From the NCBI GenBank assembly GCA_044892525.1, contig CM097885.1, positions 18,230,001 to 18,294,000 on the forward strand: a stretch of 64,000 nt of DNA, read 5' to 3'. The notes below the pieces were generated by a model, which saw only the letters and a program-made list of their open reading frames with translations, searched no databases and was not told where the DNA came from. A program made the translations under genes and the position numbers. The number at the start of each line of letters is the position of its first letter. Position 1 is the stretch's first letter. The DNA comes from Schmidtea polychroa. Its lineage: Eukaryota. This document shows positions 827 through 62,331 of the stretch, in pieces.

Positions 827-938
827 GAAACCATGTCATCTGCGCGGACGTCAATTGCGCGGGTCCAACTGCGCGGACGTCAATTATTATTATTATTATT
901 ATTAATATTATTAATATTGTTATTATTAATATTATTAA

Positions 939-1027
<89 letters not shown>

Positions 1028-11380: not shown

Positions 11381-14300
11381 TTATCCGATCTCTCAGCAAA
11401 TATTTCTACCCTTTTAAACATCTATCCGATTATATCCCTTATTTTCCCTAAAGATTTCACCCACTTGAGCCCTTTAATATGTATCAATCCTCTTAAAATC
11501 CTCAGAGAACTTCAAAAATATGACTTTTAATTAATTGTTATAGAACCAGACAAATAATAAGAGCCCACTAAAAGATCAAAATTCACTAAATTTTCTACAA
11601 ATATATACCATCAAATACTGGAGATGATATATATTGATTGATCATAATTCTTCATCGATTCAGCCAATCATTTTCAAGCGCTATCAGCAAACTAAATTTC
11701 AGTATATTCTACAATCATTTTCAAGTAAATTTAAATTCCTTGTTAAAGTTAACTAGTTTCTTAGCTCATGTTTTTAAAAGTTCATCAATGAGTAAATATT
11801 CTTAGAAAATTATTGAAAAAATTATTTAGTGAAATATATTACAAACTTATCATTAAAAATTTATTCTATCACTTGAAATTAATTTTTATTTAAAAACTAT
11901 TCAATAAAATACCACTAATTATCAAGAAATTAATTAAATTTATCAATTAAATTTATCACCATTAAAACTTTTAATCAGTCAACATGAAATTCTTAGAAAA
12001 TTGTTCAATATCCTCATAAAAATTTATCCTACCACTTGATTATTGTACAAACTCTAATTATTAACCTCATTAAAAATTAAAAATACATCCAATTATCAAG
12101 AAATTAATTAAATTTATCTTAGAACTAACTTTGAATTATTAAATATTCATTCAATAATCATGAAATCCACAAAAATAATAGAAATTTACAAAAATCAAAG
12201 AAATTCACAAAAATGATAAAAATTCATGAAAATGATAGAAATTCACAAAAACGATAAAAATTCATAAAAATTATAGCAATTCGCAAAAATAATAGGAAAT
12301 TCACAAAAATGATAGATATCCACAAAAATTACAGATAATCAAAAAAATTACGGAAAATAATAGAAATCCGCAAAAATAATAGAAATTCACAATAAAAAAC
12401 GATAAAAATTCACAAAAAAGATAGAAATTTACTTGAATAAAACCATCAACTCTAAAAATTATGAATACCTTAAACAACAAATTTGCCTAAATAATCATTC
12501 AAATAAAAACATTAAATACCTTTACGACTAATACCCTTGCGACATGTTGAATGTGAGTAGTACCCTTGTGAGCAATACCCATAGGGGGACAGAATATTTT
12601 GTCGGATAAACTCAGAGTATATATTAATTAACTCATTTTTCATTGAATTAGTCAAATTATCATAAATTTCGATAAAAAATCTAAAGTGGTAAGCAATGTA
12701 AAGAGAAATATTCTTTAAACTTTGATAAAATTAACAATGAAGGTGGTAAGAATCTTCATTAAAGTGAGGAAATTACTCGATGATAAATTCAAATGGGTGA
12801 AAATAATTGGTAGAATAATTCATTAATGGAGGTAAATAATGAGAAGTGGCATAGATAAGAAGAAGGTTGATAAAAATGTAAATATATTAATTGAATTTAT
12901 TTAAAATTATTTCATAAAATTCATAAATTTAATAAAAAAACTTTTAAAACAAATATTTGTGGGGAATAATTAATCAAAATCGGGGGGATATTAGTGATTA
13001 ATTAATGGAAAATAGAGAATCGGGGAATACAAATGATTAAATAGTGGAAATTGGGGGAATATAGGAGATTAAATAGTGGGGTATTGAGAATCGGTGGAAT
13101 ATAAGTGAGAAGGATATGTAATTTAAACTATTTTATTACGTAACAAGCCATGACTAGTTTATTGCATAACAAGCTGTGAACGGGATTTTACCAACATTTT
13201 ACCTAGTATTGAATTTAATTTTTATTGTATTTTTAAATTGTATATATTTTCAATATCATTCTATTGTTTTATTCCAATAATAAGTTTAAAAAGTATATAA
13301 TGATTAATAAATTAATATCGTGTTAACATTTATTTGAGAATTTAAAAAACTTTACTTAAAATTTAGTGAAATATTTAATTTTGATTGTATTTTATAAGAC
13401 ATATATTTGAGTATTAACTTATTTTGATTGAAGTATTATATTCAATATTATGATGATTTTTTTTTCTAAATTAAAATATTTTAGTGTAAAATAGTAAATT
13501 TAATAATGAATAGAATACAATATTAAAGGACTTTTTAAAAAGAAAAATTACTTTCTATTACCTAATTCCATCATTAAGTTTAAGAAGTCTATAACTGTTA
13601 ATAAATCAATTTCTTATTCACATTTTCTTATAAAACTTATATTTTTAAATTAAGTGTAAAGAATTTAATTTTAATTGTATTTTATAAGTCATTTATTTGA
13701 ATATTTATCTTATTTTTATTGAAAGGAGTAATATAATTAATAATATGATAATTGTTTTTGAAATATTTAGTGTAGAATAATAAATTTATTAATAAATAAT
13801 TATTACAATATTAAAGGACTTATACAACAAAATTTTTGTCTTATTCCATAAAAAGTTTTAAAGTATATAACTGGTAATAAATTAATTTCTTATTTAAATT
13901 TATTTAAAAAAGCTTTACTTATAAAATTTATATTTTCGAAGACTTATATTTGAATATTAACTTATATTGATTGAAAAGGGTAATTGATTTAGAAATTAAT
14001 TAGTGTAAATCAAAACATTTAAATTATTAAGGTATTAAAGTACCTATTCAAAAATTTAAAAAAAAAAAAACCTAATCAATAATTTTCAATAAAATACTAT
14101 TCACAGCTTGTTATGTAATAAACTAGTCACGGCTTGTTATGTAATAAAATAGACGCGGCTTGTTACGTAATAAAATAGTTTAAATTACATATCCTTCTCA
14201 CTTATATTCCACCGATTCTCAATACCCCACTATTTAATCTCCTATATTCCCCCAATTTCCACTATTTAATCATTTGTATTCCCCGATTCTCTATTTTCCA

Positions 14301-17300
14301 TTAATTAATCACTAATATCCCCCCGATTTTGATTAATTATTCCCCACAAATATTTGTTTTAAAAGTTTTTTTATTAAATTTATGAATTTTATGAAATAAT
14401 TTTAAATAAATTCAATTAATATATTTACATTTTTATCAACCTTCTTCTTATCTATGCCACTTCTCATTATTTACCTCCATTAATGAATTATTCTACCAAT
14501 TATTTTCACCCATTTGAATTTATCATCGAGTAATTTCCTCACTTTAATGAAGATTCTTACCACCTTCATTGTTAATTTTATCAAAGTTTAAAGAATATTT
14601 CTCTTTACATTGCTTACCACTTTAGATTTTTTATCGAAATTTATGATAATTTGACTAATTCAATGAAAAATGAGTTAATTAATATATACTCTGAGTTTAT
14701 CCGACAAAATATTCTGTCCCCCTATGGGTATTGCTCACAAGGGTACTACTCACATTCAACATGTCGCAAGGGTATTAGTCGTAAAGGTATTTAATGTTTT
14801 TATTTGAATGATTATTTAGGCAAATTTGTTGTTTAAGGTATTCATAATTTTTAGAGTTGATGGTTTTATTCAAGTAAATTTCTATCTTTTTTGTGAATTT
14901 TTATCGTTTTTTATTGTGAATTTCTATTATTTTTGCGGATTTCTATTATTTTCCGTAATTTTTTTGATTATCTGTAATTTTTGTGGATATCTATCATTTT
15001 TGTGAATTTCCTATTATTTTTGCGAATTGCTATAATTTTTATGAATTTTTATCGTTTTTGTGAATTTCTATCATTTTCATGAATTTTTATCATTTTTGTG
15101 AATTTCTTTGATTTTTGTAAATTTCTATTATTTTTGTGGATTTCATGATTATTGAATGAATATTTAATAATTCAAAGTTAGTTCTAAGATAAATTTAATT
15201 AATTTCTTGATAATTGGATGTATTTTTAATTTTTAATGAGGTTAATAATTAGAGTTTGTACAATAATCAAGTGGTAGGATAAATTTTTATGAGGATATTG
15301 AACAATTTTCTAAGAATTTCATGTTGACTGATTAAAAGTTTTAATGGTGATAAATTTAATTGATAAATTTAATTAATTTCTTGATAATTAGTGGTATTTT
15401 ATTGAATAGTTTTTAAATAAAAATTAATTTCAAGTGATAGAATAAATTTTTAATGATAAGTTTGTAATATATTTCACTAAATAATTTTTTCAATAATTTT
15501 CTAAGAATATTTACTCATTGATGAACTTTTAAAAACATGAGCTAAGAAACTAGTTAACTTTAACAAGGAATTTAAATTTACTTGAAAATGATTGTAGAAT
15601 ATACTGAAATTTAGTTTGCTGATAGCGCTTGAAAATGATTGGCTGAATCGATGAAGAATTATGATCAATCAATATATATCATCTCCAGTATTTGATGGTA
15701 TATATTTGTAGAAAATTTAGTGAATTTTGATCTTTTAGTGGGCTCTTATTATTTGTCTGGTTCTATAACAATTAATTAAAAGTCATATTTTTGAAGTTCT
15801 CTGAGGATTTTAAGAGGATTGATACATATTAAAGGGCTCAAGTGGGTGAAATCTTTAGGGAAAATAAGGGATATAATCGGATAGATGTTTAAAAGGGTAG
15901 AAATATTTGCTGAGAGATCGGATAAGATGGGATATTGTCGGTGAGATTTAATGAGTGATCGGTTAAGATGGGGAAAATATGATCTTTTAAGGGGATATAG
16001 TCGGTTAGATTTAATGTGAGATGGGTTAAGATGGGAATATATCATTGTAAGGGAGATATAGTCGATTGAATTTAATGAGGGATGGGTTAAGATGGGAATA
16101 TATGATTGTAAGGGGGATATAGTCGATTGCTTTTAATGAGGGAAGGGTTTCGATGGGAATATATGATTTTTTAAGGGTGATGTTGGTAAAATATCAATGT
16201 TTTTTAAGGAAATTGCAATACATTAGTCAGTTATGAATCAATAATAATTATATCGTTTTATTAGGTTGTGATTAATCCATTGTATATTAATTTAGATTTA
16301 TGGATTATTAAGTAGGGATAATGATCGATTTACTTGGTTTTGACAATGAAAACTTTACAGATAATTGGGATTGATATCAACTTTAAATTATTTTTATCTT
16401 TATTTAGACGGAGAATGACAAAAGTTTAGAAATATGGACTTAAAACATCGACTAAATAAAATTGATCTTTATTGAAAGAAATCTATCGATTGATTTTAAT
16501 TAGTAATTAAATCGATTGAATATCGGTAAAATGATCATTTGAAGAAATATATTTTATTGAATGGATAAATTTAATCTTTTAATGGGACCTAGTCAGTTAT
16601 ATTTATTTTAAATTTCGAGTACAGTGATTAACAAAAATTTAATTATAACCGGTTTTATCATTAGATTTTATCAATTATTTAGGGTTAATGACCAAATTAT
16701 TTTACATGTTTTATAATATTCGTGATAATAGGAATTAAAGTCATTTAAAGGGGATTTTAAGCAATCTTATTAGTCTGAGGTAAATATATAACCTTTTAAG
16801 GATATTTATCGATAAAATACTAATCTTTAAAGATAGTTATTTCAGGGAAATTTGATGCTTTTTAGATGATTTTAGTGAAATATTTGTAATAATACGAATT
16901 AAGGGTTGAAATATAGTCATTTAAGGGGATTTTAAGGAATCTTGTTAGTTTGAGGAGAATATATGATCTTTAACAAGTACTTATCATTAAAATACCAATC
17001 TTTAAATATTGATATATTTAGGGGGAAAATGATGCTTTTTAGATGATTTTATTGGAGAATTCACTTGGATATACCAATTATTGTCATTTGAATGAATTTA
17101 CTGGTTTGTTAGATGTTATCATTAGTTATCTAGTCTCTTTTGGAATTTAATGATAATTATTTTTATTGTAGATTGCTGACTTTGATAATGATCAGCATTT
17201 TTTTTTATTTATTGGATGATTAGAATTTTTTCTTGTCCATTAATTAAATTTTTATGATATTTATTTTGAATAATTTAAATTTTTACAATTATTTAATCAA

Positions 17301-22179: not shown

Positions 22180-24040
22180 TTAGTTCTCTGCTGACTTCAC
22201 TAAACATACAGAGATAGTTAAACTTCCGTCGGCGGTGAGTTCCATGACGATCCCCAGGCGGCGTCTAACAAGCGTTTCGGAAATTCCATGGACCCGCATT
22301 TGGCTTTCATTATTCAGGACTGTTCGTAACCAGCTTGCTACCGTGGCCGAGTCCACCATCAACTTGATTCTCTTAATTCCCCATTGTATTGACAAGTTGA
22401 TAACCTTAAGCACCGAGTCAAGTTCTGCAACATTTATATGAGAGTGGTCATCGGGTTTTCTGAGCCACGAAGCATCCTCAACAACATCATCATTTATTAC
22501 CAGCAGAACCCCTAGGGCGAGACTACTCGCATCACACCACAGAACCCCGCAATCACTATTAGTTACCGTCCATCTTCCCTTGACCGGGTCGCTTGTTTTA
22601 ACACGAGTGATCACTTCTGCCAGCTTCGATTCGCATTCTTTTCCAATTAACTCATCCTATTTAGCTCCCATTGCAGTCTTTTTAATATAACTGCACGCCA
22701 CTGTGAGCCACCCTGCGACTGGATAATGTCCAACCAGCTTACGGAATATAGAGAACAGCGTACGACGAGTGATTTCACTTGTGTTTGCATCGACATCTTT
22801 TCCCCTGATCCATGACAGGTGGCCTACATGATCACGTTTTATTCTTTATCCTTTGCGTTTTTTATTGATTCTGCTGGCTTTGTGGTCAGGCCGTATTGAG
22901 CTAAGTGATTCACGACCTCGTCAATTTGAACTTTGCCTGTGTCTACAGCGATGTCATCAATGTAGTGATCTGTCGCATCTTTGATTCTGGGGTGGAGGCT
23001 TAACACTTTTCTGAGCACTCGAGACATTATTTTTGGAGCACAGTTGAGGCTGAATCCCAATCTTGCTAAGTAATACAACTTACATTTGTATCGAACTTTT
23101 GGTATTCCCAAAGTTCTTCGCTGACATGTAACTGCAAATAGGCATTCTTTAAATCGAGCATTACCACTTGATCTCCCATTTGTCGTCATTTTTTTAAACT
23201 TTCACCACACACATTACTGTCACCGGTGTGACTCTTATCGTAATTATTGAGATCTCTAAACTCAAAAACCGGTCGGACTTTTCATTTGTTTTCTTGCACT
23301 GCTGCTAGCAAGGGCAAGATACCATGATCGTCGCTATTCGCCGGAGTCAACCAGTCTTCCTTGATCCAGCACTCGATCTCCTTTTCGTACTCCTGTCGTA
23401 TTTCTGGTTTTACTGCATATTCTGCGACAAGGTTTTTCAGCAAGGCAGGCTTATCTCTCCACTTCCAGGACATGGTCCATTTGTTCCCGTCGATTGACGC
23501 TAAAAAATCGTCATCTTCAATTTTTACTTGGTTCTGCTTCACGGTCTTTACTGATGAGACATCACATCCACCAAATTGCACTTCTTCATTATTGATCCGA
23601 ACGCCTCCAAGAAGTCCTATTGCATCAAATCCCAGAACAATGTTGACTCCTGCTTCGAGATTTTTTTATTATTAAACAATTTACCATGACACATGATCAC
23701 CGCACGGATATTCTGAATTAACTCTCCTTCGCAAGCCACTCTAAGACCGTCTACAGATATGATGTCCATGGTTTCGCCTCTATCTCTCGCAAGCCTGTTA
23801 TGCAATCGTTTGGAAGCATCCGGAATCAAATAATCCAACGCACCACTTTCCATTCACCTTGAGCTTGACTATCACCTGCGCCATTCCCGACGTTATAGAG
23901 AAATCACTGGCGCTACAGTTTCTCTTCTGGCGTTTCCCTGCGATCTTTTTGGACATTGTCTGGATGAGTGCCCTGTGTTCCCGCATGTCACACATTCTTG
24001 CATGGGACATTTGTTCACGTAGTGACCCGGTCTCCGATCG
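22180..24040 (-). mobile_element. Degenerate Ty3/Gypsy-like gag-pol fragment (Zn knuckle, protease, RT, RNase H)
   Basis: CVTCGNTGHSSRQC (23893-24126), LFDSGC (23798-24010), RLGFSLNCAP...YIDDI (22839-23189), WCDASSLALG...HINVAELD...VDS (22180-22614); several frameshifts; no LTRs seen. Confidence 0.88.
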
Positions 24041-25014
24041 CTAAGAAAATGAAACCATTTTCGGACGGAGAATTTGTAAAAGAATATTTGGCAGCTGTTA
24101 TAGAAGACGTTATGCCAGATAAACATAAAATGATTTCAAGCATAAGTTTGTCGCGTCAAACAATTTGTTGTCGCATTAATGATATTTCAGATGAAATAGT
24201 GGTGACTTTACGAGAGCGGATTCAACAATTCAAAGCATATTCTCTAGCTTTCGACAAAGTACAGTTATTTCAGATACATCACAACTAGCTGTATTTATTC
24301 GTGGCGTTAACGATTCTTTCAGAATGACACAAGAAATGTTAAATTTGAAATTTGAAAGACACCACTAGAGGAGGGGATGTTTTCACGCTATAAAAAAATA
24401 TTTATCCTGGAATTCTTTACATTTAGAGACTAGACTAACAACGGATGGTGCGCTTGCTATGATTGGTAAAAATAAAGGAACTGTAAAGTTGTTTATGGAT
24501 GAACTTGAAGCTTCATCTGTTAAACCAAGTGAAATATTTGTAATACACTGTTTGATACAATTTATGTGCCCAGGTATTGTCCATGAACCATGTCATGGAT
24601 GTGGTAATAAAAACAATTAACTATATTCGATCAAATGCGCTTCAGCATCGCAAGTTCAAAGTATACCTTGACAAATTAAGTTCGGAATACGGCGATATTG
24701 TCTATTTAACTAAAATTAGATGGTTGAGTCGCGGAACATGTTTAAAAAAATATTTTGAATTACGGGTGGAAATAGAAAATTTTATGGCTGAAGAGAGAAA
24801 TTCAGCTTCAAATTTAAATGGCGAAATGTGGTTGTTGGACATGTGTTTCTTAGTAAATATAACCGAAAAAATTAACCAGATAAACAAGGAGATACAGGGG
24901 CAAGATAATTTAATTATTGATGCTTGTAATCATATCAAAGCATTCCAAACCAAGCTAATTTTATTTGAGTCCCAACTTAGAAATAACAATCTTCCCACAC
25001 TCGTGCTTTGTTGA
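24035..25014 (+). pseudogene. Degenerate hAT (Buster/SPIN, GTF2IRD2-like) transposase fragment
   Basis: KPFSDGEFVKE, SLSRQTI, YSLAFD, TTDGA, HC, INYIRSNALQHRKF, RWLSRG across frameshifted ORFs. Confidence 0.9.
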
Positions 25015-25349
25015 TTGCAAATTTTCGACTGTTTGGTTTGTCCGTCGTATTTTAAAATCTAAGAAGGATTTACCTTTTAGATTAAATTGCTCGGGTTGAA
25101 ATTTTGGGTAATTGATAATGATTTAAATTCGCTATTTATATTATTTTCTGCGTCTTTCTTACTATTAAAATTAAATTAATATTTTTTAAGTGCTATTATT
25201 TGTTATTATTATTTGCATCATAAATATTTAAGTGTTATATTATCTTAGAGTAGTATGATTGGAGCTCCCCAGACCAGGAGCTCCCCGCGCCACATATACC
25301 CCCTCCCCCCCCCGGGAAAAAAAAATTTTTTTTTTTTAATTTTTTGTTT

Positions 25350-26420
25350 TAATTAATTGGCCTGGCGGGCTCACACTTTTTTTCATCCCAAAAATTAATG
25401 TTCTCGTTAACAGATTTTATTGACCGATACCTCATCTTAAAGCACAGTCCAAGACCTTTCGAATGAGCTATAGGTATCATATATATCTTTAATAGTTTTA
25501 ATGTTATTAACAATTGATGACCACCATCTTTTCAACGTTAAATTATTATTATTTTCCAAAATATTATTAATTGGCCTGGCGGGCTCACACTTTTTTTCAT
25601 CCCAAAAATTAATGTTCCCACCAACGGATTTTATTGGACGATACCTCATCTTAAAGCTCAGTCCAAGACCTTTCGATTGATCCATAGAAGGTATCATCAT
25701 CATTAATATTGACAAAGTTATTAACAATTGATGACCACCATCTTTTCAACGTTAAATTATTATTATTATTCAAAATATTATTAATTGGCCTGGCGGGCTC
25801 ACACTTTTTTTCATCCCAAAAATTAATGTTCCCATTATCCGAATTTATTAATCGATAGCTTATTTTGAAGCGTAGTCTAAGACCTTTCAATTGAGCCATA
25901 GAAGGTATCATCATCATTAACATCGGCAAAGTTATTAAAGTTTTACCGAGACCATTTTTCAAGGTCATTTATTTTTTCAAGGTCATTTATTTTTTCAAGG
26001 TCATTTATTTTTTCAAGGTCATTTATTTTTTCAAGGTCATATTTTAAAATTTAAATGTACAGAGTTCCCGACAACGATAATTATTCAACGATAGCTCATT
26101 TTAAAGCCCAATGCAAGATCTTTCGATTGATTCATAGAAGGTATCATCATCATTATTATTGACAAAGTTATTAACAATTGATGACCACCATCTTTTCAAC
26201 GTTAAATTATTATTATTATTCAAAATATTATTAATTGGCCGGGCGGTGACATACTTTTTCTCATCCCAAAAATTAATGTTCCCATTATCCGAATTTATTA
26301 ATCGATAGCTTATTTTGAAGCGTAGTCTAAGACCTTTCAATTGAGCCATAGAAGGTATCATCATCATTAACATCGGCAAAGTTATTAAAGTTTTACCGAG
26401 ACCATTTTTCAAGGTCATTT
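25350..26420. repeat. About 214-bp tandem units carrying five dyad-symmetric sites; mirrored at about 37030-38110
   Basis: TTAATTGGCCTGGCGGGCTCACAC recurs at about 25353, 25567, 25781 and (variant) 26231. Confidence 0.9.
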
Positions 26421-26585
26421 ATTTTTCAAAATATTATTTTCAAGGTCAAGGTCAAGGTCATTTATTTTTTCAAGGTCATTTAATTTTTAAATAAAAGGTC
26501 AAGGTCATTTATTATTTTCAAGGTCATTTATTTTTTCAAGGTCATTTATTTTTTCAAGGTCATTTATTTTTTCAAGGTCATTTAT
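25955..26585. repeat. 18-bp TTTTCAAGGTCATTTATT arrays (two blocks: about 25955-26040 and 26405-26585)
   Basis: Seen directly; mirrored at about 36880-37040 and 37405-37510. Confidence 0.92.
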
Positions 26586-26611
26586 TATTTTTTAAGTTTT
26601 TAGTTTCTAAG

Positions 26612-26663
<52 letters not shown>

Positions 26664-26835
26664 ATTATAGTTATAATTATAATTATTATATACTCCTAGT
26701 CTATCCGACAAGATATTCTGTCCCCCTATGGGTACTGCACACAAATGTACTACTCACACTCAACAAGTCACAAGGGTACTGCTCACACTCAATATGTCGT
26801 AAATTATTATTATTATTATTTCAAATACAAGTTCA

Positions 26836-26875
<40 letters not shown>

Positions 26876-27240
26876 TATTATTACGCGCACGGGGAATATT
26901 ATTGTCATATATACTCTTAATCTATCCGACAAAATATTCTATCCCTTTATGGGTATTGCTCATATGGGTAATGGTCAAAGGTGTACTACTCACATTCAAC
27001 ATGTCTCAAAGGGTATAATATAATTATTATTAAATTCTGACCAACTTAAATCAATGAAGGGGTAGAACAAAAATATATTAAGTTGCGGTATTTTAAATTT
27101 AAAAATATTTTAAAAACTTATTTTGACACTAAAGTTTACTTAATTAACAAAGACATAATTATTGCACATGCTTTGCATAAATATTATTATTATTTTTTTA
27201 ATTTTCAATATTTTCTTTTAAAGTATTAACACGCGCGGGA

Positions 27241-27314
<74 letters not shown>

Positions 27315-27318
<4 letters not shown>

Positions 27319-27827
27319 GTTAATGAAAAATCTAAAATATGGTTTACACACACAACCCCTCAACCATTATTATTATTATCAATATCAAAAACCTAAAATA
27401 TTTTCTACACACACACACATGCACAACTCATTAACCATTATTATTATCATTATTAGTGAAAACCTAAAATATTTTTTACACACACACACAACCCATTAAC
27501 CATTATTATTATTATTATCAATATTAAAAACCTAAAATATTTTTACACACACACATACAACTCATTAAACTTATTATTATTATTATTATTATTGCAAATA
27601 TTAGTCAAAAACCTAAAATATTATTTACACTCACACAACCCATTAACAATTATTATTATCAATATTAGTGAAAACCTAAAATATTTTCTACACACACACA
27701 CAACCCATTAACCATTATTATTATTGCAAATATTAGTCAAAAACATAAAAACACTCATAAACCATTATTATTATCAATATTCGTGAAAACCTCAAATATT
27801 TTTTACACACACACACAACCCATTAAC

Positions 27828-27884
<57 letters not shown>

Positions 27885-27920
27885 CAATATTAGTGAAAAA
27901 ACCTTAAATAATTTTTACAT
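27315..27920. repeat. About 65-bp minisatellite (AAAACCTAAAATATTTT..ACACACAC..AACCCATTAACCATTATTATT); mirrored at about 35530-36135
   Basis: Seen directly. Confidence 0.9.
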
Positions 27921-30900
27921 ACTAAGTTATGGGGTAGAGTATTATTATGTTTGCAGTATTCTGTGTTTGCCTTTACAGGAAGTTGTCAATAATTTTACAC
28001 ACACATTCTATATACACATACCTTGTTTAACATGGGTGTATATACTCCTAGTCTATCCGACAAAATATTCTGTCCCCCTATGGGTATTGCTCACAAAGGT
28101 ACTACTCACACTCAACATATCGCAAGGGTATATTAATTATGGTTAGTAAATAAAACCTATCACACACACTTTAATATTTAAACGAAAAAAAATCAAGACA
28201 AGAGAGGACAAGGCAAAGTTAATGCATTTAGTATTGCCAGGCCTAATGAGCAGTGACCAAATATCTGTGCCTGAAAGACACGGTGGATATTTGTTCGCGT
28301 CCACAAGGGTCGTCTGTGCCTCCCCCAAGTGGGGTCAGGAGAACCTGGGCATTATAGCTTTCCGTACGGAACATTACGCCTAGCATGGGTAGTCAACTAC
28401 CAGCACATTCGAAACGTATAATTTCAAAATACATGCGTCATTGGCACTATAACCAAATTAATTAATGTTTTCACTAACACAAAAATATATTTACAGAGGC
28501 CTCCCACTAGTTGGATTACAACCGCCCACCACGACGATCAGCTTGTAAATATATATTAATTAAGGGATAAAGAGGACCCACCCAACCCTATTATATTTAA
28601 TTTACAAATTTTTCTCGCTCTTCTGTTGGTATTCTATCTCAAAATTATCATCTCCATCGGGCCATTTGGAATACATCTTGCAAATTGGACGTATTTCTTA
28701 GTTTCTGATGCGGCGTCCACTATCATTGCTAAAATTTATATTGATTTAAAAGCAATTAACTTACATTATCTAACATTTTATCATCACAGGCTTGATAAAT
28801 TAGGCAACTGTTATTTGTGGTATACTTTTTCAATGTCATTTCCCACCATAAAACACAGATACCTAAATATAATATATATATATATTTTAAAAGATTAATT
28901 CATGTCTTACATTAATAATAATATTCTTCAGGTATGACGAGTACTTTACTTAATTGCTAAAACGTCGATTTTTCCCATTTTTCTTGACATTTGTTGAAAG
29001 TTTACATAATTTAAGTCTGATAATTCATGTTGAAGGACACCCACAATCAGCTAATTCATTTAAGAAATCCAGAACATAGCAATGTTTCACCATTTTATCT
29101 GGTTCATCTTCTTCATAATTATATAATTCATTTTCTTCATTACTAAGTAAATTAATTAAAATATTGTAGTAAATTCTTTATTTACTTACTTTATGGATAC
29201 TAAAACGAAAGAAATAAAGTTATATCAAAAGTATATTTAAATAAATTAAATTTAAATAATTTAATTTAGTTATTTAAAAATATTTAAACAATTTAGTTAT
29301 TTAAGCATATTTAAACATTAACATTATTATATAGTATAATTTTATATAATATTATAATTTTATGTACACTTATATATCCTTCATTTAATTTTTTAAATTC
29401 AAAATTTATAATGAAGATTCTTTGAATTAAAAAATATTCTGTTAGTATTTCCAGGCAGTAAACAACGAATTCAATAATTAAAATCTTAATTTTCATGTTG
29501 TTAGGGTTGTGGCCAGAATTTAATCGCCATCTAATCGTTTGTTCTCAATTTCGCTCATTTTTGTTCAAAACATTCAGGTGAGTTGTTATCTGGAAAGTTT
29601 CTTTGAGCTCAGTTTTGTTAAAACACTCACGGTATTTTTGAGGGACATGACACTGGGAATAAATTAACAATGGGTGGTCTTGCATACATGTTGTTGGTTT
29701 GAACTGTTGATTTATTTTAGAAATATGTATATTAAAAACATTTAAGGTATCATTCAGTAAAATAATATAGTATTTTTGAGTATTTTTAGTTGATTTATAA
29801 ATAACAGTATTTTGATATATCAATAAAGACCATATACTCCTAGTTTATCCGACAAAATATTCTGTCCCCCTATGGGTATTGCTAGCAAGGGTACATCTCA
29901 CATTCAACAAGTCGCAAGGCTATATTAATCATTTAGAAATTCTTAGGTAATTTAGTGAGATGATCAGAAATTCGTGAATATTTTAAATGTAACTTTACAC
30001 TTATGTCGAGCGACTAATTTATTGGTTAACTTTGTAGTCATTTAAAGCAAAAATTAATTTATTCATCTAATGTTCGTTACAATAGTTAATAATATGAGAA
30101 AAACATGGTCATTATTCATTGATAATTTTAAATTCTTTATCATTTGGAGTAAATTTGTTTGAGGCAAAAATAATTAAAGGAGTCATAATAGAAATATGGT
30201 TATCATTTATCCAATTAAGGGGCCTATTATTTAGAAATATATATTATAAAGTAACAATTATTTTCTAATTTAATTAGATGATCATTAGACGTAATATATC
30301 TTTGCGAGAAATTTAAGATGTTTGAGTAACCAAAACATGGACATTTTGTGCGATAAATTTATGAATATTGCTTAATTTTGTTATTTTTAGTCATTTAAAA
30401 TAATATTTAGCAAATGTAATTTAGCAAAATATCATTTATCCACCCGATAACAATATTCCTTCAATAGATTAACTGATATTCAACCTATTTAATTTCTGGA
30501 AATATAATTAAAATCATAAATTTCCTTCATGAAAGTTAAATTTTCTTTAGTTGTCGATGTCTAACTCTTTTAAGTCAATATTTTTGTTACCGTTATCTTC
30601 ATAATGAATGTCCGTCTTTAAAATGTTAAATAAAATAATTTAAAGCAATAACCTTTGATATCAATTATCTCTAAATATTTCAAATATTGCATTGTCAAAA
30701 CCAAGTAAATTAGTCATTACCCATTAATAAAACCGTGGATAATTAATAAAAACTGGTTCTGAAACATAAATTACTGTGCAATAACATTCATCACAACCTC
30801 TAAAACGATATAATTTCACAGGAACTATTCATAGCTGACTATTTCCCTTGAAAATTTGATATTTTACCAATAAGAATATATAAATATTCAAAACATTAAC

Positions 30901-33900
30901 CGATCCCTCACCAAATATCTTTACCCCTTAAAACACCTTAAATCGTATATATTACCATCTTAACCTTCACTAAATCCAACCGAATATAATTTCATCCACT
31001 TGTGCCCTTTAATAAATCTTAAAATCTATAGAAAATTCTTCAAAATATGAATTTTATTTAATTGTCACAGACATTCTTCCATTGAAATAATTTAGTAGCT
31101 AAATTCAAAGAGTCCACTAAAAGATCAAAATTCATTAAAATAAATATTTAACCACATGTGTCATCAAATACCTAACTAGAGATGATAATATCTCATTGAT
31201 TGATCATAATTATAACCATTATAACATGATATATCTTTCAAACTAAATTTAGGTATATTTTACAATAATTTTCAAGTAGATTTCAAATATATCATCATCG
31301 TGAAAAAATTAGATTGTTTCAACTTTAGATTTTCAATATTTTAAAGTTCATCAATGTGTAAATATTCTTAGAAAAATATATGAAAAAATTATTTAGTCAA
31401 ATTATCATTACAAAGTCATCATCATCATCAAAATTAATAAAATATAGCAAATTATCAAGAAATTAATTAAATTTATCTTAGAATTAACACTAAACCTTAA
31501 ATATTCTTTCAATTAACATGAAATTCACAAAAAAATATTAGTAAAATCCCGCTAACTCTAAAAAATTACCAATGAATTTAATGCCAAATAATAACCAAAT
31601 ATTTGCCTAAATAAAATCATTAAAACACACCAGTACCTTTACGACCAGTACCCTTACGACCAGTACCCTTACGACCAATACCCTTACAAGCAGTACCCAT
31701 AGAGGGAGAAAATATTTTGTCGGATAAACTCCGAGTATATATAATAAAACGAATTAACAATAACTCCATCAAATTGAATCAGTCAAATTATCACAAATTT
31801 TAATAAAAAATCTTATTCTAAAGTGGTAAGCAGCGTAAAATCGAAAGATAATTTTAATAACACAGAGATAAAATTAACAATATTATTCTCAGGTGGTAAG
31901 AATCATCATTATTCTATGATTAATTAATAATGAAATTCAAAAAGGTGAAAATAAGGGTTTGAATTATTCATTAATGGAACGTAAATGTAAATATACCGAG
32001 AAGTGTCATAGATAAGATGGAAATATATTAATTGCATTTATTTAAAATTATTTCATGAAATTCATAAAAATTTATAAAAATGATCACTTTAATAAAAAAA
32101 AAATATTTAATTCAATGTTCAAAGAAATAGTTGTTGGGAGGATTAGTGGAAAATGGGGGGCTATAAGTGATGAGTATTTATAAATTATTTCTAATATATG
32201 AGTGACTAACGAATAATAATAATGTGATAAACAATTATTTTGATAAAGTATTTAATCCAAAAATGACAAACATACATAACAAATGGTATTTGACTAAGCA
32301 ATTATGATAACTTTATATTTTAAATTTTGATTAACTCCTTTAATATTGAATTAATAATTATGAGATTTACTATTTTACATTAAATATTTCAAAAACAGTT
32401 ATTCTAAAAGATAATTTAAGATACATTACTCTTTTTAATCAAAATAATCTCTCAAAGTTAAGAAGGAAACAAAGTGTGTCAGAACACATACCCAGCATTA
32501 ACTTTACTTAAATTTATGAAAACATCAAGTAAGCAATGATAATAGAGGGATAACAGACTCAAAAATAAAATATTATTCTCAGGTGGTAAGAATCTTCATT
32601 AAAGTTAGGAAATTATTTATTATTCTGTGATAAATTAATAATAAACTTCAAAGGGGTTAAAATAAGTGTTAGAATAATTCATTATTGGATTATGGAAGGT
32701 TAATGAAAATATACTGAGAAGTGGCATGGATATATATTAATTGTATTTATTTAAAATTATTTCATAAAATTCATAAATTTCATAAAAATTCATAAAAAAC
32801 GTTCACTTTAATAAAAAAATATTTAATACAATTTTAAAGGAAATATTTGCCAGGAGAATATAACCAATAAATTAGTCGCTCGACATAAGTGTAAAGTTAC
32901 ATTTAAAATATTCACGAATTTCTGATCATCTCACTAAATTACCTAAGAATTTCTAAATGATTAATATAGCCTTGCGACTTGTTGAATGTGAGATGTACCC
33001 TTGCTAGCAATACCCATAGGGGGACAGAATATTTTGTCGGATAAACTAGGAGTATATGGTCTTTATTGATATATCAAAATACTGTTATTTATAAATCAAC
33101 TAAAAATACTCAAAAATACTATATTATTTTACTGAATGATACCTTAAATGTTTTTAATATACATATTTCTTAAATAAATCAACAGTTCAAACCAACAACA
33201 TGTATGCAAGACCACCCATTGTTAATTTATTTCCAGTGTCACGTCCCTCAAAAATACCGTGAGTGTTTTAACAAAACTGAGCTCAAAGAAACTTTCCAGA
33301 TAACAACTCACCTGAATGTTTTGAACAAAAATGAGCGAAATTGAGAACAAACGATTAGATGGCGATTAAATTCTGGCCACAACCCTAACAACATGAAAAT
33401 TAAGATTTTAATTATTGAATTCGTTGTTTTCTGCCTGGAAATACTAACAGAATATTTTTTTTAATTCAAAGATTCTTCATTATAAATATTTGAATTTAAA
33501 AAATTAAATGAAGGATATATAAGTGTACATAAAATTATAATATTATATAAAATTATACTATATAATAATGTTAATGTTTAAATATGCTTAAATAACTAAA
33601 TTGTTTAAATATTTTTAAATAACTAAATTTAAATTATTTAAATATAATTCTGATATAACGTTATTTCTTTCGTTTTAGTATCCATAAAGTAAGTAAATAA
33701 AGAATTTACTAAAATATTTTAATTATTTTACTTAGTAATGAAGAAAATGAATTATATAATTATGAAGAAGATGAACAAAATGGTGAAACACTAAATGACT
33801 TATGTTCTGGATTTAGAGATTTCTTATTAAAACATGAATTATAGAAGAAAATGAACCAGACAAAATGGTGAAACATTGCTATGTTCGGGATTTCTTAAAT

Positions 33901-35568
33901 GAATTAGCTGATTGGGGGTGTCCTTCAACATGAATGTTTACTTAAATTATGTAAACTTTCAACGAATGTCAAGAAAAATGGGAAAAAACCGATGTTTTAT
34001 CAATTAGATATTGTAAAGTACTACCTGAAGAATATTATTATTAATGTAAGACATGAATTAATTCTTTAAAATGAAGGATATATAAGTGTACATAAAATTA
34101 TAATATTATATAAAATTATACTATATAATAATGTTAATGTTTAAATATGCTTAAATAACTAAATTGTTTAAATATTTTTAAATAACTAAATTAAATTATT
34201 TAAATTTAATTTATTTAAATATACTTTTGATATAACTTTATTTCTTTCGTTTTAGTATCCATAAAGTAAGTAAATAAAGAATTTACTACAATATTTTAAT
34301 TAATTTACTTAGTAATGAAGAAAATGAATTATATAATTATGAAGAAGATGAACCAGATAAAATGGTGAAACATTGCTATGTTCTGGATTTCTTAAATGAA
34401 TTAGCTGATTGTGGGTGTCCTTCAACATGAATTATCAGACTTAAATTATGTAAACTTTCAACAAATGTCAAGAAAAATGGGAAAAATCGACGTTTTAGCA
34501 ATTAAGTAAAGTACTCGTCATACCTGAAGAATATTATTATTAATGTAAGACATGAATTAATCTTTTAAAATATATATATATTATATTTAGGTATCTGTGT
34601 TTTATGGTGGGAAATGACATTGAAAAAGTATACCACAAATAACAGTTGCCTAATTTATCAAGCCTGTGATGATAAAATGTTAGATAATGTAAGTTAATTG
34701 CTTTTAAATCAATATAAATTTTAGCAATGATAGTGGACGCCGCATCAGAAACTAAGAAATACGTCCAATTTGCAAGATGTATTCCAAATGGCCCGATGGA
34801 GATGATAATTTTGAGATAGAATACCAACAGAAGAGCGAGAAAAATTTGTAAATTAAATATAATAGGGTTGGGTGGGTCCTCTTTATCCCTTAATTAATAT
34901 ATATTTACAAGCTGATCGTCGTGGTGGGCGGTTGTAATCCAACTAGTGGGAGGCCTCTGTAAATATATTTTTGTGTTAGTGAAAACATTAATTAATTTGG
35001 TTATAGTGCCAATGACGCATGTATTTTGAAATTATACGTTTCGAATGTGCTGGTAGTTGACTACCCATGCTAGGCGTAATGTTCCGTACGGAAAGCTATA
35101 ATGCCCAGGTTCTCCTGACCCCACTTGGGGGAGGCACAGACGACCCTTGTGGACGCGAACAAATATCCACCGTGTCTTTCAGGCACAGATATTTGGTCAC
35201 TGCTCATTAGGCCTGGCAATACTAAATGCATTAACTTTGCCTTGTCCTCTCTTGTCTTGATTTTTTTTCGTTTAAATATTAAAGTGTGTGTGATAGGTTT
35301 TATTTACTAACCATAATTAATATACCCTTGCGATATGTTGAGTGTGAGTAGTACCTTTGTGAGCAATACCCATAGGGGGACAGAATATTTTGTCGGATAG
35401 ACTAGGAGTATATACACCCATGTTAAACAAGGTATGTGTATATAGAATGTGTGTGTAAAATTATTGACAACTTCCTGTAAAGGCAAACACAGAATACTGC
35501 AAACATAATAATACTCTACCCCATAACTTAGTATGTAAAAATTATTTAAGGTTTTTTCACTAATATTG

Positions 35569-35622
<54 letters not shown>

Positions 35623-36131
35623 GTTAATGGGTTGTGTGTGTGTGTAAAAAATATTTGAGGTTTTCACGAATATTGATAATAATAATGGTTTATGAGTGTT
35701 TTTATGTTTTTGACTAATATTTGCAATAATAATAATGGTTAATGGGTTGTGTGTGTGTGTAGAAAATATTTTAGGTTTTCACTAATATTGATAATAATAA
35801 TTGTTAATGGGTTGTGTGAGTGTAAATAATATTTTAGGTTTTTGACTAATATTTGCAATAATAATAATAATAATAATAAGTTTAATGAGTTGTATGTGTG
35901 TGTGTAAAAATATTTTAGGTTTTTAATATTGATAATAATAATAATAATGGTTAATGGGTTGTGTGTGTGTGTAAAAAATATTTTAGGTTTTCACTAATAA
36001 TGATAATAATAATGGTTAATGAGTTGTGCATGTGTGTGTGTGTAGAAAATATTTTAGGTTTTTGATATTGATAATAATAATAATGGTTGAGGGGTTGTGT
36101 GTGTAAACCATATTTTAGATTTTTCATTAAC

Positions 36132-36206
<75 letters not shown>

Positions 36207-36571
36207 TCCCGCGCGTGTTAATACTTTAAAAGAAAATATTGAAAATTAAAAAAATAATAATAATATTTATGCAAAGCATGTGCAATAATTATGTCTTTGT
36301 TAATTAAGTAAACTTTAGTGTCAAAATAAGTTTTTAAAATATTTTTAAATTTAAAATACCGCAACTTAATATATTTTTGTTCTACCCCTTCATTGATTTA
36401 AGTTGGTCAGAATTTAATAATAATTATATTATACCCTTTGAGACATGTTGAATGTGAGTAGTACACCTTTGACCATTACCCATATGAGCAATACCCATAA
36501 AGGGATAGAATATTTTGTCGGATAGATTAAGAGTATATATGACAATAATATTCCCCGTGCGCGTAATAATA

Positions 36572-36611
<40 letters not shown>

Positions 36612-36783
36612 TGAACTTGTATTTGAAATAATAATAATAATAATTTACGACATATTGAGTGTGAGCAGTACCCTTGTGACTTGTTGAGTGTGAGTAGTAC
36701 ATTTGTGTGCAGTACCCATAGGGGGACAGAATATCTTGTCGGATAGACTAGGAGTATATAATAATTATAATTATAACTATAAT

Positions 36784-36853
<70 letters not shown>

Positions 36854-38280
36854 CTTAGAAACTAAAAACTTAAAAAATAATAAATGACCTTGAAAAAATA
36901 AATGACCTTGAAAAAATAAATGACCTTGAAAATAATAAATGACCTTGACCTTTTATTTAAAAATTAAATGACCTTGAAAAAATAAATGACCTTGACCTTG
37001 ACCTTGAAAATAATATTTTGAAAAATAAATGACCTTGAAAAATGGTCTCGGTAAAACTTTAATAACTTTGCCGATGTTAATGATGATGATACCTTCTATG
37101 GCTCAATTGAAAGGTCTTAGACTACGCTTCAAAATAAGCTATCGATTAATAAATTCGGATAATGGGAACATTAATTTTTGGGATGAGAAAAAGTATGTCA
37201 CCGCCCGGCCAATTAATAATATTTTGAATAATAATAATAATTTAACGTTGAAAAGATGGTGGTCATCAATTGTTAATAACTTTGTCAATAATAATGATGA
37301 TGATACCTTCTATGAATCAATCGAAAGATCTTGCATTGGGCTTTAAAATGAGCTATCGTTGAATAATTATCGTTGTCGGGAACTCTGTACATTTAAATTT
37401 TAAAATATGACCTTGAAAAAATAAATGACCTTGAAAAAATAAATGACCTTGAAAAAATAAATGACCTTGAAAAAATAAATGACCTTGAAAAAATAAATGA
37501 CCTTGAAAAATGGTCTCGGTAAAACTTTAATAACTTTGCCGATGTTAATGATGATGATACCTTCTATGGCTCAATTGAAAGGTCTTAGACTACGCTTCAA
37601 AATAAGCTATCGATTAATAAATTCGGATAATGGGAACATTAATTTTTGGGATGAAAAAAAGTGTGAGCCCGCCAGGCCAATTAATAATATTTTGAATAAT
37701 AATAATAATTTAACGTTGAAAAGATGGTGGTCATCAATTGTTAATAACTTTGTCAATATTAATGATGATGATACCTTCTATGGATCAATCGAAAGGTCTT
37801 GGACTGAGCTTTAAGATGAGGTATCGTCCAATAAAATCCGTTGGTGGGAACATTAATTTTTGGGATGAAAAAAAGTGTGAGCCCGCCAGGCCAATTAATA
37901 ATATTTTGGAAAATAATAATAATTTAACGTTGAAAAGATGGTGGTCATCAATTGTTAATAACATTAAAACTATTAAAGATATATATGATACCTATAGCTC
38001 ATTCGAAAGGTCTTGGACTGTGCTTTAAGATGAGGTATCGGTCAATAAAATCTGTTAACGAGAACATTAATTTTTGGGATGAAAAAAAGTGTGAGCCCGC
38101 CAGGCCAATTAATTAAAACAAAAAATTTTAAAAAAAAAATTTTTTTTTCCCGGGGGGGGGGGGGGGGGGAGGGGGTATATGTGGCGCGGGGAGCTCCTGG
38201 TCTGGGGAGCTCCAATCATACTACTTCTTAGTAGTATTATATTGTTATATTAATGTTACGTATTATAGTAGCCTTAATTA

Positions 38281-39699: not shown

Positions 39700-41325
39700 A
39701 AGTATTTATCGACGAATGAATCACTGTTGATTGTGACATTGATTGTTTGAATTGATAGAGGCGTGATTGTTCGACTTGGCTATTGGAGTTGTGCGTGCTC
39801 TACGTAGATGTTTACCCGGTGTTTGTTTGGGCCGGTCCTATAGTATATTGTCAGCTCGAATTCTTTAATACTTCGACCTCTGTCATCCAACAGTTGTCTC
39901 ACAATGTTTCTCGCATCTATTGTTGGCACTCCGACGATTCTATTTTCGATATATAACTCGCGCAATTTGAATTATCAAAATAATAGCCAATATTCCGGCC
40001 ATCATTTGTCCGAATACCAGAAATCTACCTCATATATCTTTCATCATATTCGACGTAGCTTGTTGGAAATTATTTGGTGAAAAGAGTAATTCATAATTTA
40101 GTCCTTGTTGATAATTGGTTCATCATTTTATCGTTACCAAATTCGACAATATTGAGTTTCTTTGAGCAGAGAATAGTACATTTAGTCGAGCTGCTTCCAG
40201 ATCTTCACTCTTGTACATCCCTCTGTTTTGACACATCAATAGGACAAAAGTCTTGTTCCGTTGCTAGTTCCATTAATCCAAATTTCTTTGGTTCGGTTAT
40301 CTCTGACATTATTGATAACATTACCCATTTTTGCGACTGGTTTCTGGAACAAAGATCCGATTATCAATACTACAGTTAAATTGATTTGGCTGAAATCTAA
40401 CAGGATTTTTTATTCTGGAAACTGGCTGCATAAATAATTTTTGTCCTTGATGAGAAATTTCCAACCAATTGGCAAATTTTCCGATTGGTATGATTGATTT
40501 TTCTGGCATTCTCGCAAATTCTTAGCACATCCATATTTATATATATTTTTTCTACCATCCTACCAAAATATCCTTTTGGTAGAGGTAATAGAGGCATGAC
40601 ACTGTTTTGGTGAGTCATTGCTATGGTCAATTTTGTATTTATTTTTCTTTATTAAGCGTACAATCGTTTTGCGCAAATTCATGATATATTTTTTCATTTG
40701 ACGATTGTCCTTTATGTAATAAGAAATCCATCTTGTTGTTTAAATATAGATGCAGTTTCATATCCTCCTTATTTACTTTTCTGATCGCGTTATCGATAAT
40801 TTATCGAGATATAAATATTGCCGCATAGTAGGTCTGAAACCACAATCTTCCACATTTCGTATCTTGTTCGCCTCCATTGAATGTTATTCCAATATCTGGA
40901 TCATGTGTGATTAGTGCGGTTGGTGTCTTTATTTGCTAATTGTTTTGTTATTGCTGGAGCTCTAGATGGTATCCCGTTTTTCATTGTGATAATATTCTTT
41001 ATATCCATGTCCTCCGGATCCTCTTCGAATATTTCACCTTTTACTTCATCGAATATTACGATTTGCAAGAACTGAAAACGATATTTCTGAATTTACGCGT
41101 CATCTATGATGGTTAATTGTCTAGTTCTACAAACTTTATTAGTGGCTTTGCAGTAAGGGTTGGTTTTCATTTGTTAATTTGATGCATCTAATTGTGCTTC
41201 GTATTCTTTTATTTCCACAGAGGTTTCGATAACCACTACATTTGACACTGATTCTCCTCTCAGGGCATACGTTCCTCCTTGACATGATCCATGTGCTGAG
41301 CTAATACTTCCTAATACATTTGGCT
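39700..41325 (-). pseudogene. Decayed chuvirus-like glycoprotein (endogenous viral element or retroelement env)
   Basis: Manual translation gives GSISSAHGSCQGGTYALRGESVSNVVVIETSVEIKEYEA, then PKGYFGRMVEKIYI and WLEISHQGQKLFMQPVSRI in the order I recall for chuvirus-type G proteins; many stops and frameshifts. Confidence 0.6.
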
Positions 41326-41513
41326 TTTATTTTCAATGTAAAAAATTAATTTAATTCAATTTCATTATCTGTAACGTGCATTGTGCAAATAAAATAGCAC
41401 CAGTGTAAAAGTGAATATTTTACAATACTTTTTCACATTTTTAAAATTTAATTTATATAAACAAATATCGACCAATCAAAATATTTTATTTAAAAATTGG
41501 AATAATATTTTCA

Positions 41514-43271
41514 TTAGATATTTGTTGCGATGTCTTTCATAATTCTAAGGCATACCTCCTCTCGCCACATCATTGAGACGCTTTGTACTCCTATGGGCAT
41601 ACCAATAGAATCCTTTTGATATTCCAGAATCTTACGGTGGATTTTACTATCTCTTGGGTAATTTTCCAGGAGACTATCAATGTCATTTTGATTTACGGTG
41701 GTAACAGGTGTAGATCCCGCTGGATAATCCAGTAAATTGTAGATTGATGTATATGCAATAACACTTTCCAGCTCTTGAGATTTGTGTAATGGTGGAGCAC
41801 ATATTGGCAATGTCGGACAAATTAAACCATCCAATTTCTCATTTTGCCAGTGGACTAAAACCTTTTCGCGATAATCAATAACCCTATCTTTAAATTGCCA
41901 TAGTTTATAAACGGAAGGTATCGCCATGGTTGCATTCAATAAAATACTCGAGCTCTTATCGAATGGATAAAGTAGAAAACTTAAACATTTTTTAAGCAAA
42001 TTTGGCATTTTGAATAATGTAACGTAATTTAGAATGCAGTGATCAACGGGATTATTTTTCAAACATTCTTTTTTGAAACCTTCACCACCGTCATTTAATA
42101 GACTTCTCAAAAAAATTTCGGATACTGCAGAATCAATCTCTGGTATTTGGAATTCCACCAATTTGTGTCCAGCTGATTCTAATGCCTTTTTTGCCATCAA
42201 AACCGCCCGTTCTACAGCTGGTACTGGAGTCACCTGACTGCCCCCTAGATGAATATAATAACCTATTTTTAATGGCCGTTTGTCTTCGAAAACATTAATA
42301 TCAAAGCATATAGGAGGGCAATATGGATCCAATTGAAACGAATCTCTGTTTGTCATCATTTTATAAACAGCAACTAAATCATCAATATGACGCGCCATTG
42401 GCCCATAGGATTCACAAACGAAATTTGGATATGGAAACATACATTTGGAATCGCGTTTACTAATCCTTGGTGAACTGGGTTTGAATCCATATATCCCACA
42501 ATAATGAGAAGGAATACGAATACTTCCTCCAATGTCACTTCCTAATCCTATCAACGACGCACCACATCCTAATATAGCTCCCTCTCCGCCTGAACTGCCT
42601 CCACTTGTTCGACCTTTATTGAATGGATTTAACGTTTCCCCATATATAGGATTTGAAGATTCTATAGCAAGACAACCTTGACTGAGATTGGTTTTAAGAA
42701 ATGGAATAAATCCGTGTAACTTCAAAATTTGAATTATAATCTCATCTTCCTTTGCTGGATTAGAAACTTGATCTAGCATTCCATTAGTGCAATCACAATG
42801 TTTCAACACAAAACATTCTTTCACACTTATTGGAATGTTAATGATTTTCTTGTCGACTGATTCACGAGAAATATCTAATTCTGCATTGGGATTCAAATCA
42901 GTTATAAAATTATATTCCTTATCCATTATTAGAGCTTTTGCTTGGTATGCTTGAAGAACATCAAGTGATGTAAATTCTCCTTTTTCAATAGCTTCATGTA
43001 AATCACTCAATTTCAAATTCGTAATCTTATCCATATTATTTATTGGAGTTCCAAGATCTTTTAGTTTTTTCAACAGTTCACTTTTCTTATGACTTAATTC
43101 CTTTTGCTTTTCTTTAATCTGAGCATTGTTACGATTGCTACGATAGTAACAATATCCCGCATAACCAATTGTACCAAATATTAATGGATAAGAAATTTTT
43201 TTTATTGTATCTTTTAATTCTTGATCAATATGGCACATTTGATGCATTTTCGATTGATAAATAATTGACAA
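41514..43271 (-). CDS. FAAH: Fatty-acid amide hydrolase-like amidase-signature enzyme, intronless; true start probably the Met at codon 9 or 12 because this copy begins with TTG
   Basis: PISVKE (catalytic Lys), GGSSGGEG, GSDIGGSIRIPSHYCGIYGFKP, N-terminal hydrophobic segment, YTSIYNLLDYPAG, GMPIGVQ. Confidence 0.92.
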   Translation of the reverse strand: MSIIYQSKMHQMCHIDQELKDTIKKISYPLIFGTIGYAGYCYYRSNRNNAQIKEKQKELSHKKSELLKKLKDLGTPINNMDKITNLKLSDLHEAIEKGEFTSLDVLQAYQAKALIMDKEYNFITDLNPNAELDISRESVDKKIINIPISVKECFVLKHCDCTNGMLDQVSNPAKEDEIIIQILKLHGFIPFLKTNLSQGCLAIESSNPIYGETLNPFNKGRTSGGSSGGEGAILGCGASLIGLGSDIGGSIRIPSHYCGIYGFKPSSPRISKRDSKCMFPYPNFVCESYGPMARHIDDLVAVYKMMTNRDSFQLDPYCPPICFDINVFEDKRPLKIGYYIHLGGSQVTPVPAVERAVLMAKKALESAGHKLVEFQIPEIDSAVSEIFLRSLLNDGGEGFKKECLKNNPVDHCILNYVTLFKMPNLLKKCLSFLLYPFDKSSSILLNATMAIPSVYKLWQFKDRVIDYREKVLVHWQNEKLDGLICPTLPICAPPLHKSQELESVIAYTSIYNLLDYPAGSTPVTTVNQNDIDSLLENYPRDSKIHRKILEYQKDSIGMPIGVQSVSMMWREEVCLRIMKDIATNI

Positions 43272-60597: not shown

Positions 60598-60800
60598 TAA
60601 ATTTTTTATGTATTCTGTTTTTTATATAGATGACCAAAAATAATAATAATAAAAATAATAAAAATAATAACATTAATGCAATTTAAACAAAGACATTTAA
60701 TCTGATTGGTTTTCCATTTATTTTGAAGGTATTAAAACCCTGTCCATTTCATTTTAATCATGATTCACAATGACCAAGAAAAGCACCGAAAAACCGAAAG

Positions 60801-62316: not shown

Positions 62317-62331
62317 TTTGTTTATTATAAA

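Follow-up and report, generated by a model that had tools for sequence, protein, structure and literature searches.

The stretch of DNA analysed here (the window) comprises 64,000 nucleotides (nt) of Schmidtea polychroa (GCA_044892525.1, contig CM097885.1, positions 18,230,001 to 18,294,000 of the forward strand) and contains a gene-less element of 12,977 bp, hereafter element B, built of two mirror-image arms, on whose extent self-BLAST, the printed sequence and the alignment of the arms agree. The element starts with AGTAGT at 25249, finishes with ACTACT at 38225, and is bounded by two copies of TCTTAG, its target-site duplication. These ends, this duplication and arms of 4780 and 5365 bp had been described in an earlier note made from the letters of this DNA, and were reproduced by self-BLAST and arm alignment. 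Taking into account the features listed in Table 1 and the genomic relatives described below, B is very probably a gene-less, helper-dependent satellite of Polintons, of the fold-back (copy-back) kind, copied and inserted by the enzymes of its helper.

Table 1. Features of element B, with positions in the window.
Feature	Positions	Strand	Remark
Target-site duplication, left copy	25243-25248	.	TCTTAG
Target-site duplication, right copy	38226-38231	.	TCTTAG
Left arm	25249-30028	+	4,780 bp
Right arm	32861-38225	-	5,365 bp; mirror of left arm plus 563-bp block
Centre	30029-32860		2,832 bp
Polinton-shared outer part	25249-26787	+	AGTAGT end; stem-loop 25261-25284; 214-bp tandem units 25352-26388
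Mirror copy of Polinton-shared terminal region	36660-38225	-	
563-bp block	33630-34192	-	Older duplication; right arm only
Inner left arm	30029-31903	+	Mirror partner absent in B; paired in intact relatives, e.g. L035/L036
Family loop, type I	31904-32577		~0.67 kb
Arm-end repeat and start of second loop type	32562-32860		Common to sister copy L082/L101-L102
Core collinear with element A and A-type copies	30434-32447		65-74% identity
Small repeat, ~100 bp	28041-28140	+	One of five copies (left arm and centre)
46-nt stretch like 5' Alu domain of 7SL RNA	28497-28542; mirror 34911-34956	-; +	Match under gathering score

Self-BLAST of one arm against the other gives 98.7% identity across 4.1 kb, and reversed-pattern controls yield 0 matches genome-wide, so the inverted arms of B are far above the level of chance. 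In the arm alignment, 25338-29262 is free of substitutions and 29418-29718 has five; the two mismatches at 25336-25337 both fall within a poly-A/T run, and of the nine small indels (1-18 bp), most fall in homopolymer runs, microsatellites or tandem units. As for the 563-bp block of the right arm, the family holds both states, with and without it, counts made with a 20-base marker being unreliable in diverged copies. Just inside the end motif (25256-25290) there are short repeated units, combinatorially variable between copies, which in B form an 8-bp stem (z -3.7) and whose variants are present on both coding and gene-less copies. The outer region 25249-26787 would likely act as origin and integrase site.

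The absence of genes from B, claimed in the earlier note, is borne out. No gene was found among 50 stop-to-stop frames of at least 55 amino acids (aa), the longest of which (141 aa) is of low complexity; a Pfam scan of 14 of the frames gave 0/14 matches at E 0.1, and tblastn of 64 frames from coding copies against B returned, among the matches listed, only terminal-repeat or repeat-derived frames. The idea of coding remnants inside B was rejected on these Pfam and tblastn results. None of the autonomous-Polinton gene set (polymerase, integrase, ATPase, protease, capsid) is found in B, which is therefore not an autonomous member of the group.

Copies that do encode such proteins are bounded elsewhere in the genome by the termini of B (L027-L032, L065/L066, L069/L070 and L174-L179; L numbers denote fetched loci), and the same 22-nt end is found on gene-less and coding copies, so that a coding partner has been recognised by terminus identity, as the earlier note had suggested. 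The coding copies measure 16.1-17.1 kb (n=8) and encode an A32-like ATPase, an rve integrase, an adenovirus-type protease and a protein of 1,388 aa with family-B motifs and a match to a PF03175-positive polymerase (E 2e-92); a search by sequence found no relative of this polymerase among solved structures. A further protein, of 427 aa, is probably the major capsid protein: its nearest Atlas clusters include double-jelly-roll proteins, its neighbours belong to PF21738 (score 0.98, recognition value under threshold), and BLASTP against a PF21738 protein gives E 0.012. The Polinton character of the termini, stated in the earlier note, is supported. B and the coding copies share the outer 0.5-1.5 kb, with the 102-bp end 97-100% identical, and coding Polintons with the same ends are, as far as sequence can tell, likely the helper of B. 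Shared ends, duplications at many unrelated sites and chimeras suggest that mobilisation occurs in trans, by helper enzymes. Patterns of 24 bases for polymerase and integrase have 818 and 1,479 genome matches, which are not helper copy numbers because sister families are included.

In this genome (781 Mb, with four chromosome-sized contigs), the first 22 bases of B have 305 matches (control 0), and a degenerate 28-base end pattern covering the end variants seen has 1,856 (reversed control 0); the B-type family would amount to about 900 elements. The first set examined, formed by 24 other facing pairs no more than 30 kb apart among the first 100 exact matches and by five further pairs, shows a perfect 6-bp duplication in 27/29, and is composed of 18 gene-less copies with the core of B, 5 coding copies, 2 chimeras, 1 fold-back of a coding copy and 3 others. 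Full palindromes account for 11 of the 18 gene-less copies; 4 are deleted, 1 is rearranged, and 2, which are duplicates of one another, carry a nested Polinton of another family. Three sets of variant-end pairs have the 6-bp duplication in 7/9, 2/6 (a set that counts three centre pieces) and 10/10, giving 46/54 over all end pairs examined, from which two loci without a second end in the fetched stretch were left out. The abundant class suggested in the earlier note is supported by these 1,856 ends.

Other arrangements of the same DNA were also observed. At C1:241.09-241.12 Mb (L074, L075, L080) a head-to-tail array holds at least 8 B-type outer arms with a period of ~3.2 kb and a B core at its end, and a similar array of inner arms lies near C1:40.89-40.98 Mb. 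Polintons and their satellites are also nested within one another: the loop of a B-type element holds a coding copy, an A-type arm holds a B-type element, and a B-type arm holds another Polinton family (L155/L156, L106-L108, L021-L026).

The 2.8-kb spacer of the earlier note was measured as a centre of 2,832 bp, but intact relatives, whose arms measure 5-7 kb and whose loop is ~0.7 kb, indicate that it is mostly orphaned inner left arm. The centre consists of 1.9 kb of this arm, the type-I loop, and 0.3 kb of arm-end repeat and second loop start (32562-32860), the last of which stops at a deletion junction with a 3-bp microhomology. Comparison with the relatives indicates that B has lost ~2.3 kb, that is, the end of the loop and the inner right arm, at this microhomology. 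The double loop is also present in a copy from another chromosome (99.5% identity over the double-loop centre), which has 15 substitutions relative to B over 26500-32860, and different ends. Since this relative has other ends and the outer 3 kb of B match a third copy instead, B is a mosaic, whose outer 3.9 kb would have been made identical on both sides.

Element A finishes at 21626, 3,623 bp ahead of B, and differs from it in terminal sequence, in accordance with the 3.6-kb spacing and different ends reported in the earlier note. However, the independence of B from A proposed there is not supported, because a collinear core of ~2 kb is common to both (65-74% identity; the A/B core has no match to a reversed control), and a small repeat occupies the same place in the two cores. 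The exact end of A occurs 100 times in the genome, and the paired A-type copies fetched are all gene-less palindromes with the shared core (10/10), nine of the ten having a 6-bp duplication. The Polinton nested in L021-L026 was considered as a helper for A and rejected, since its end differs from that of A.

With respect to the likeness of the arms, the nearest relative of an arm is the other arm of the same copy in 10/14, 10/12 and 9/10 copies for three segments. Within many copies the two arms are identical, against differences of 0.3-5.6% between copies, and as many as 21 substitutions are found in both arms of a single copy and nowhere else; cut-and-paste movement alone would not yield such own-arm homogenisation. 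In exceptional copies one arm is identical to the arm of another copy, and the trees of the three segments disagree, from which recombination among copies can be deduced. Among the changes recorded in two pairs of segmental duplicates, 15 affect a single arm and 0 are mirrored, and later nested insertions are confined to one arm (L021-L023, L120), which favours, with low power, a rewriting of the arms before insertion. Copies with mixed end variants (L101/L102, L115/L116, L166, L172/L173) keep perfect duplications, and therefore the mixing of ends preceded insertion.

Natural intermediates have also been identified. L043/L044 is a 10.2-kb palindrome of the left end of the helper, with the ATPase in both arms and a duplication; L157/L158 has a 4.4-kb copy of one end in place of the other; and in L033/L034, L051/L052 and L076/L077 the left half of the helper is joined to a B arm through at least 2 junctions. 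In a sister family, the ten inverted polymerase pairs fetched are all palindromes (L181-L200; 7.9-13.4 kb), with an exact duplication in 4/10 according to a scripted check. Mirroring of one end with loss of the genes of the other, the mark of copy-back, is seen in L043/L044, L157/L158 and L181-L200, while in B itself only the outer 1.5 kb is traceable to the helper. Four further elements of 11.2-14.7 kb, with A-like outer ends, 6-bp duplications and the polymerase in both arms, are centred on a B-type piece of 0.5-1.4 kb at one shared site, and three of them have mirror-image flanks. It appears that a nested B element is able to nucleate the fold-back of its host Polinton, which would offer a single core a way of acquiring new ends, although the full core has not been seen in mid-process.

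The replication steps proposed for B follow the model of protein-primed linear replicons. Thus, the helper polymerase would start at either end and displace a strand that, being self-complementary over kilobases, would snap back into a long panhandle and become a new template. Copying of the panhandle would rewrite one arm on the pattern of the other, mosaics and swapped ends would result from template switching among molecules that replicate together, and the helper integrase would insert the linear duplex with a 6-bp duplication. The homogenised arms, together with duplicates that lack mirrored changes, point to copy-back during extrachromosomal replication.

Size data suggest that B-type DNA may be packaged. 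The 15 intact palindromes have 69-89% of the length of the helper (B, 78%), 29/40 B-type pairs measure 11-18 kb, and only two pairs, both with nested insertions, are longer than 17.6 kb. A strict packaging window is weakened by the 9/40 B-type pairs below 11 kb, which make the lower limit loose, and by the 7.9-13.4 kb of the sister palindromes. More tentatively, B might be a heritable, capsid-sized 'gutless' satellite, whose non-coding core is kept as an inverted dimer of near-helper length through packaging, and which acquires another helper when it inserts into a different Polinton family and folds the end of that family around itself, leaving A and B with a shared core under different ends; this extension is rather doubtful.

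Several observations weigh against the helper-dependent fold-back origin of B. No free DNA, terminal protein, enzyme activity or particle has been observed. Pfam gave no direct recognition of the helper polymerase or capsid protein. Past the outer 1.5 kb, the arms of B match coding copies only in small repeats and microsatellites, and sequence comparison indicates that the core does not derive from the present helper. A one-step fold-back of this helper was rejected as the origin of B, the core being absent from the 10 helper stretches scanned; since the inner arms have no counterpart in coding copies, B is not a simple deletion derivative either. The arms are not mutual nearest relatives in 4/14, 2/12 and 1/10 copies, and the test on duplicates comprises 15 changes only, some of which may be sequencing errors, hence its low power. 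Lastly, 8/54 end pairs have no duplication, five of them having mirror-image flanks.

The near-identity of the arms within copies might instead have been acquired in the chromosome, if, once inserted, a helper-mobilised Polinton derivative had its arms lengthened and kept alike through hairpin repair and gene conversion between the arms. This is unlikely, although some loci are mirrored beyond the element ends, such as L143/L144, where 2.65 kb of flank are repeated at 99.8% identity and no Polinton end was found at the outer boundary, so that mirror-making can reach flanking DNA. Conversion after insertion should have left mirrored changes in the segmental duplicates, where only single-arm ones were counted, and it is also at odds with the persistence of one-arm insertions and deletions, with fold-back products of many sizes bearing clean 6-bp duplications, and with the finding that four loci with mirrored flanks lie in the middle of longer palindromes, which have Polinton ends and duplications of their own. 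Quite improbable, in turn, is a cut-and-paste foldback transposon of the FB/Galileo kind, with an ordinary DDE transposase and an incidental likeness to Polinton ends. The tandem units in the arms of B recall Galileo, in which the gene-less copies have the longest terminal repeats, internally repetitive as well (PMC3573991), but Galileo repeats reach at most 1.25 kb and its duplication is of 7 bp (PMC3573991), against 6 bp in B. Moreover, the terminal 0.5-1.5 kb that B shares with elements carrying Polinton genes is difficult to see as incidental, and chimeras link helper genes to a B arm within one end pair.

That B is an assembly artefact, produced by palindromic long reads or by the collapse of a repeat, is hardly credible. 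No short contig of four sequencing runs (Logan) spans the centre of B, and mirror-image flanks, which artefacts would have, are seen in five B-type pairs and one A-type pair. Nevertheless, B has two different flanks with an exact repeat of 6 bp; the 563-bp block, substitutions and microsatellite lengths distinguish its arms; most end pairs have duplications of their own; the double-loop centre recurs on another chromosome; and three runs from two studies cover every one of the 30 bins of the centre. Palindromes mirrored past their ends into the flanks (L103-L105, L139/L140 with L143/L144, L197/L198) may be real inverted duplications or assembly artefacts.

Smaller features of B and its surroundings complete the picture of the window. 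The other four copies of the small repeat in B lie near 26693, 26912 and 29833, and, reversed, at 31630-31740; a 23-base pattern of its core has 10,731 matches genome-wide. Elsewhere in the window it occurs at 1040-1138, 12508-12620 and 14686-14800, and its sites include A, B, the inner edge of the helper terminal repeat and the insertion that breaks a polymerase gene at the start of the window. Its ends are, we presume, reminiscent of rolling-circle DINE-1-type elements. An Rfam scan of 25249-33000 gave three matches, every one under gathering score; the 7SL-like stretch (30.1 bits, E 5e-06, gathering 70), the one match of note, is identical in 72/79 occurrences among fetched loci, which partly overlap, and could be a candidate polymerase III promoter in both arms. 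Among 24 sequencing runs, none was listed as an RNA run holding this sequence, which speaks neither for nor against expression.

The polymerase gene mentioned (32-3128, minus strand; PF03175 in 35-835) is a broken Polinton gene, 60-83% identical to the helper protein and disrupted near 841-1210, where a sequence with short inverted repeats at its ends has inserted. Further Polinton gene remnants lie at 60774-63795, where the frames of 61909-63795 resemble the ATPase region of the family nested in L022, and an HMG-box frame (L103:3156-3758, plus strand) belongs to Polinton-associated DNA adjoining a B-type end. The window also holds two intronless gene copies, 96% identical (41313-43270 and 52466-54426, the second broken by a stop), which we take to be amidase-like; a 654-aa frame at 57559-59523 (plus strand), presumably of a hAT-like transposase; and, at 24556-25014 (plus strand), 22180-23665 (minus) and 3672-4136 (minus), what we assume to be fragments of other transposons or retroelements.

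The replication mode of Polintons and their formation of particles in animals are long-standing open questions, and in PMC8097293 Polinton particles are described as not observed to date. Hundreds of young fold-back products and intermediates are present in this genome, with a structure that fits panhandle-based strand-displacement replication and makes the model testable. It can be estimated that ~900 elements of ~14 kb represent ~12 Mb, or 1.5% of the genome, and such near-perfect palindromes might have consequences for chromosome stability, for assemblies and for small-RNA silencing.

Gene-less, non-autonomous families with Polinton ends are present in repeat libraries. In the literature searched, no description was found of giant (12-17-kb), near-perfect palindromic, gene-less Polintons with homogenised arms, the search having covered neither supplements nor repeat libraries, which may list such families. 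Mavericks are defined by a (AGT)2//(ACT)2 or (AG)3//(CT)3 end motif and a 6-bp duplication (PMC8097293), and intact vertebrate Polintons/Mavericks measure 12.7-24.6 kb (PMC8097293, PMC6431247). B has the first of these motifs, the duplication and a length within that range, and its terminal 0.5-1.5 kb is common to coding copies of the same genome. It differs in being gene-less, in an inner core that does not seem to derive from the present helper, and in the length of its arms, 4.8-5.4 kb (relatives, 5-7 kb), compared with terminal repeats of 46-1,447 bp in vertebrate Mavericks (PMC8097293).

Foldback elements of the FB kind are likewise mostly inverted repeat, internally repetitive and non-autonomous, and include chimeric copies. 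The same is described for Galileo, a cut-and-paste member of the P superfamily with 7-bp duplications and copies of 1.7-2.2 kb, whose chimeras lack matching duplications (PMC3573991), unlike the mixed-end copies found here. Neither a 7-bp duplication nor, among the 54 end pairs examined, a P-type transposase partner was found for B, the partners identified being Polintons, and its 12,977 bp are far from the size of miniature inverted-repeat transposable elements (MITEs), usually below 600 bp (PMC3573991). Another parallel is offered by 'gutless' adenoviruses, helper-dependent genomes in which ends and cis signals suffice when a helper provides a protein-primed polymerase, and whose half-size versions were recovered as direct and inverted dimers of near full size (PMC4189039). 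These are non-integrating laboratory constructs, whereas B is natural, integrated and accompanied by hundreds of relatives, and the lower size limit of its family is loose.

Copy-back or snap-back defective interfering genomes, known mainly from RNA viruses and parvoviruses, have one end mirrored, have lost genes and depend on a helper. B has a mirrored end and no genes, and would depend on a helper as well, but its family is heritable and chromosomal and has a long-lived non-coding core of its own. On balance, B is best read as an element that works like a copy-back defective genome and not like an autonomous Polinton.

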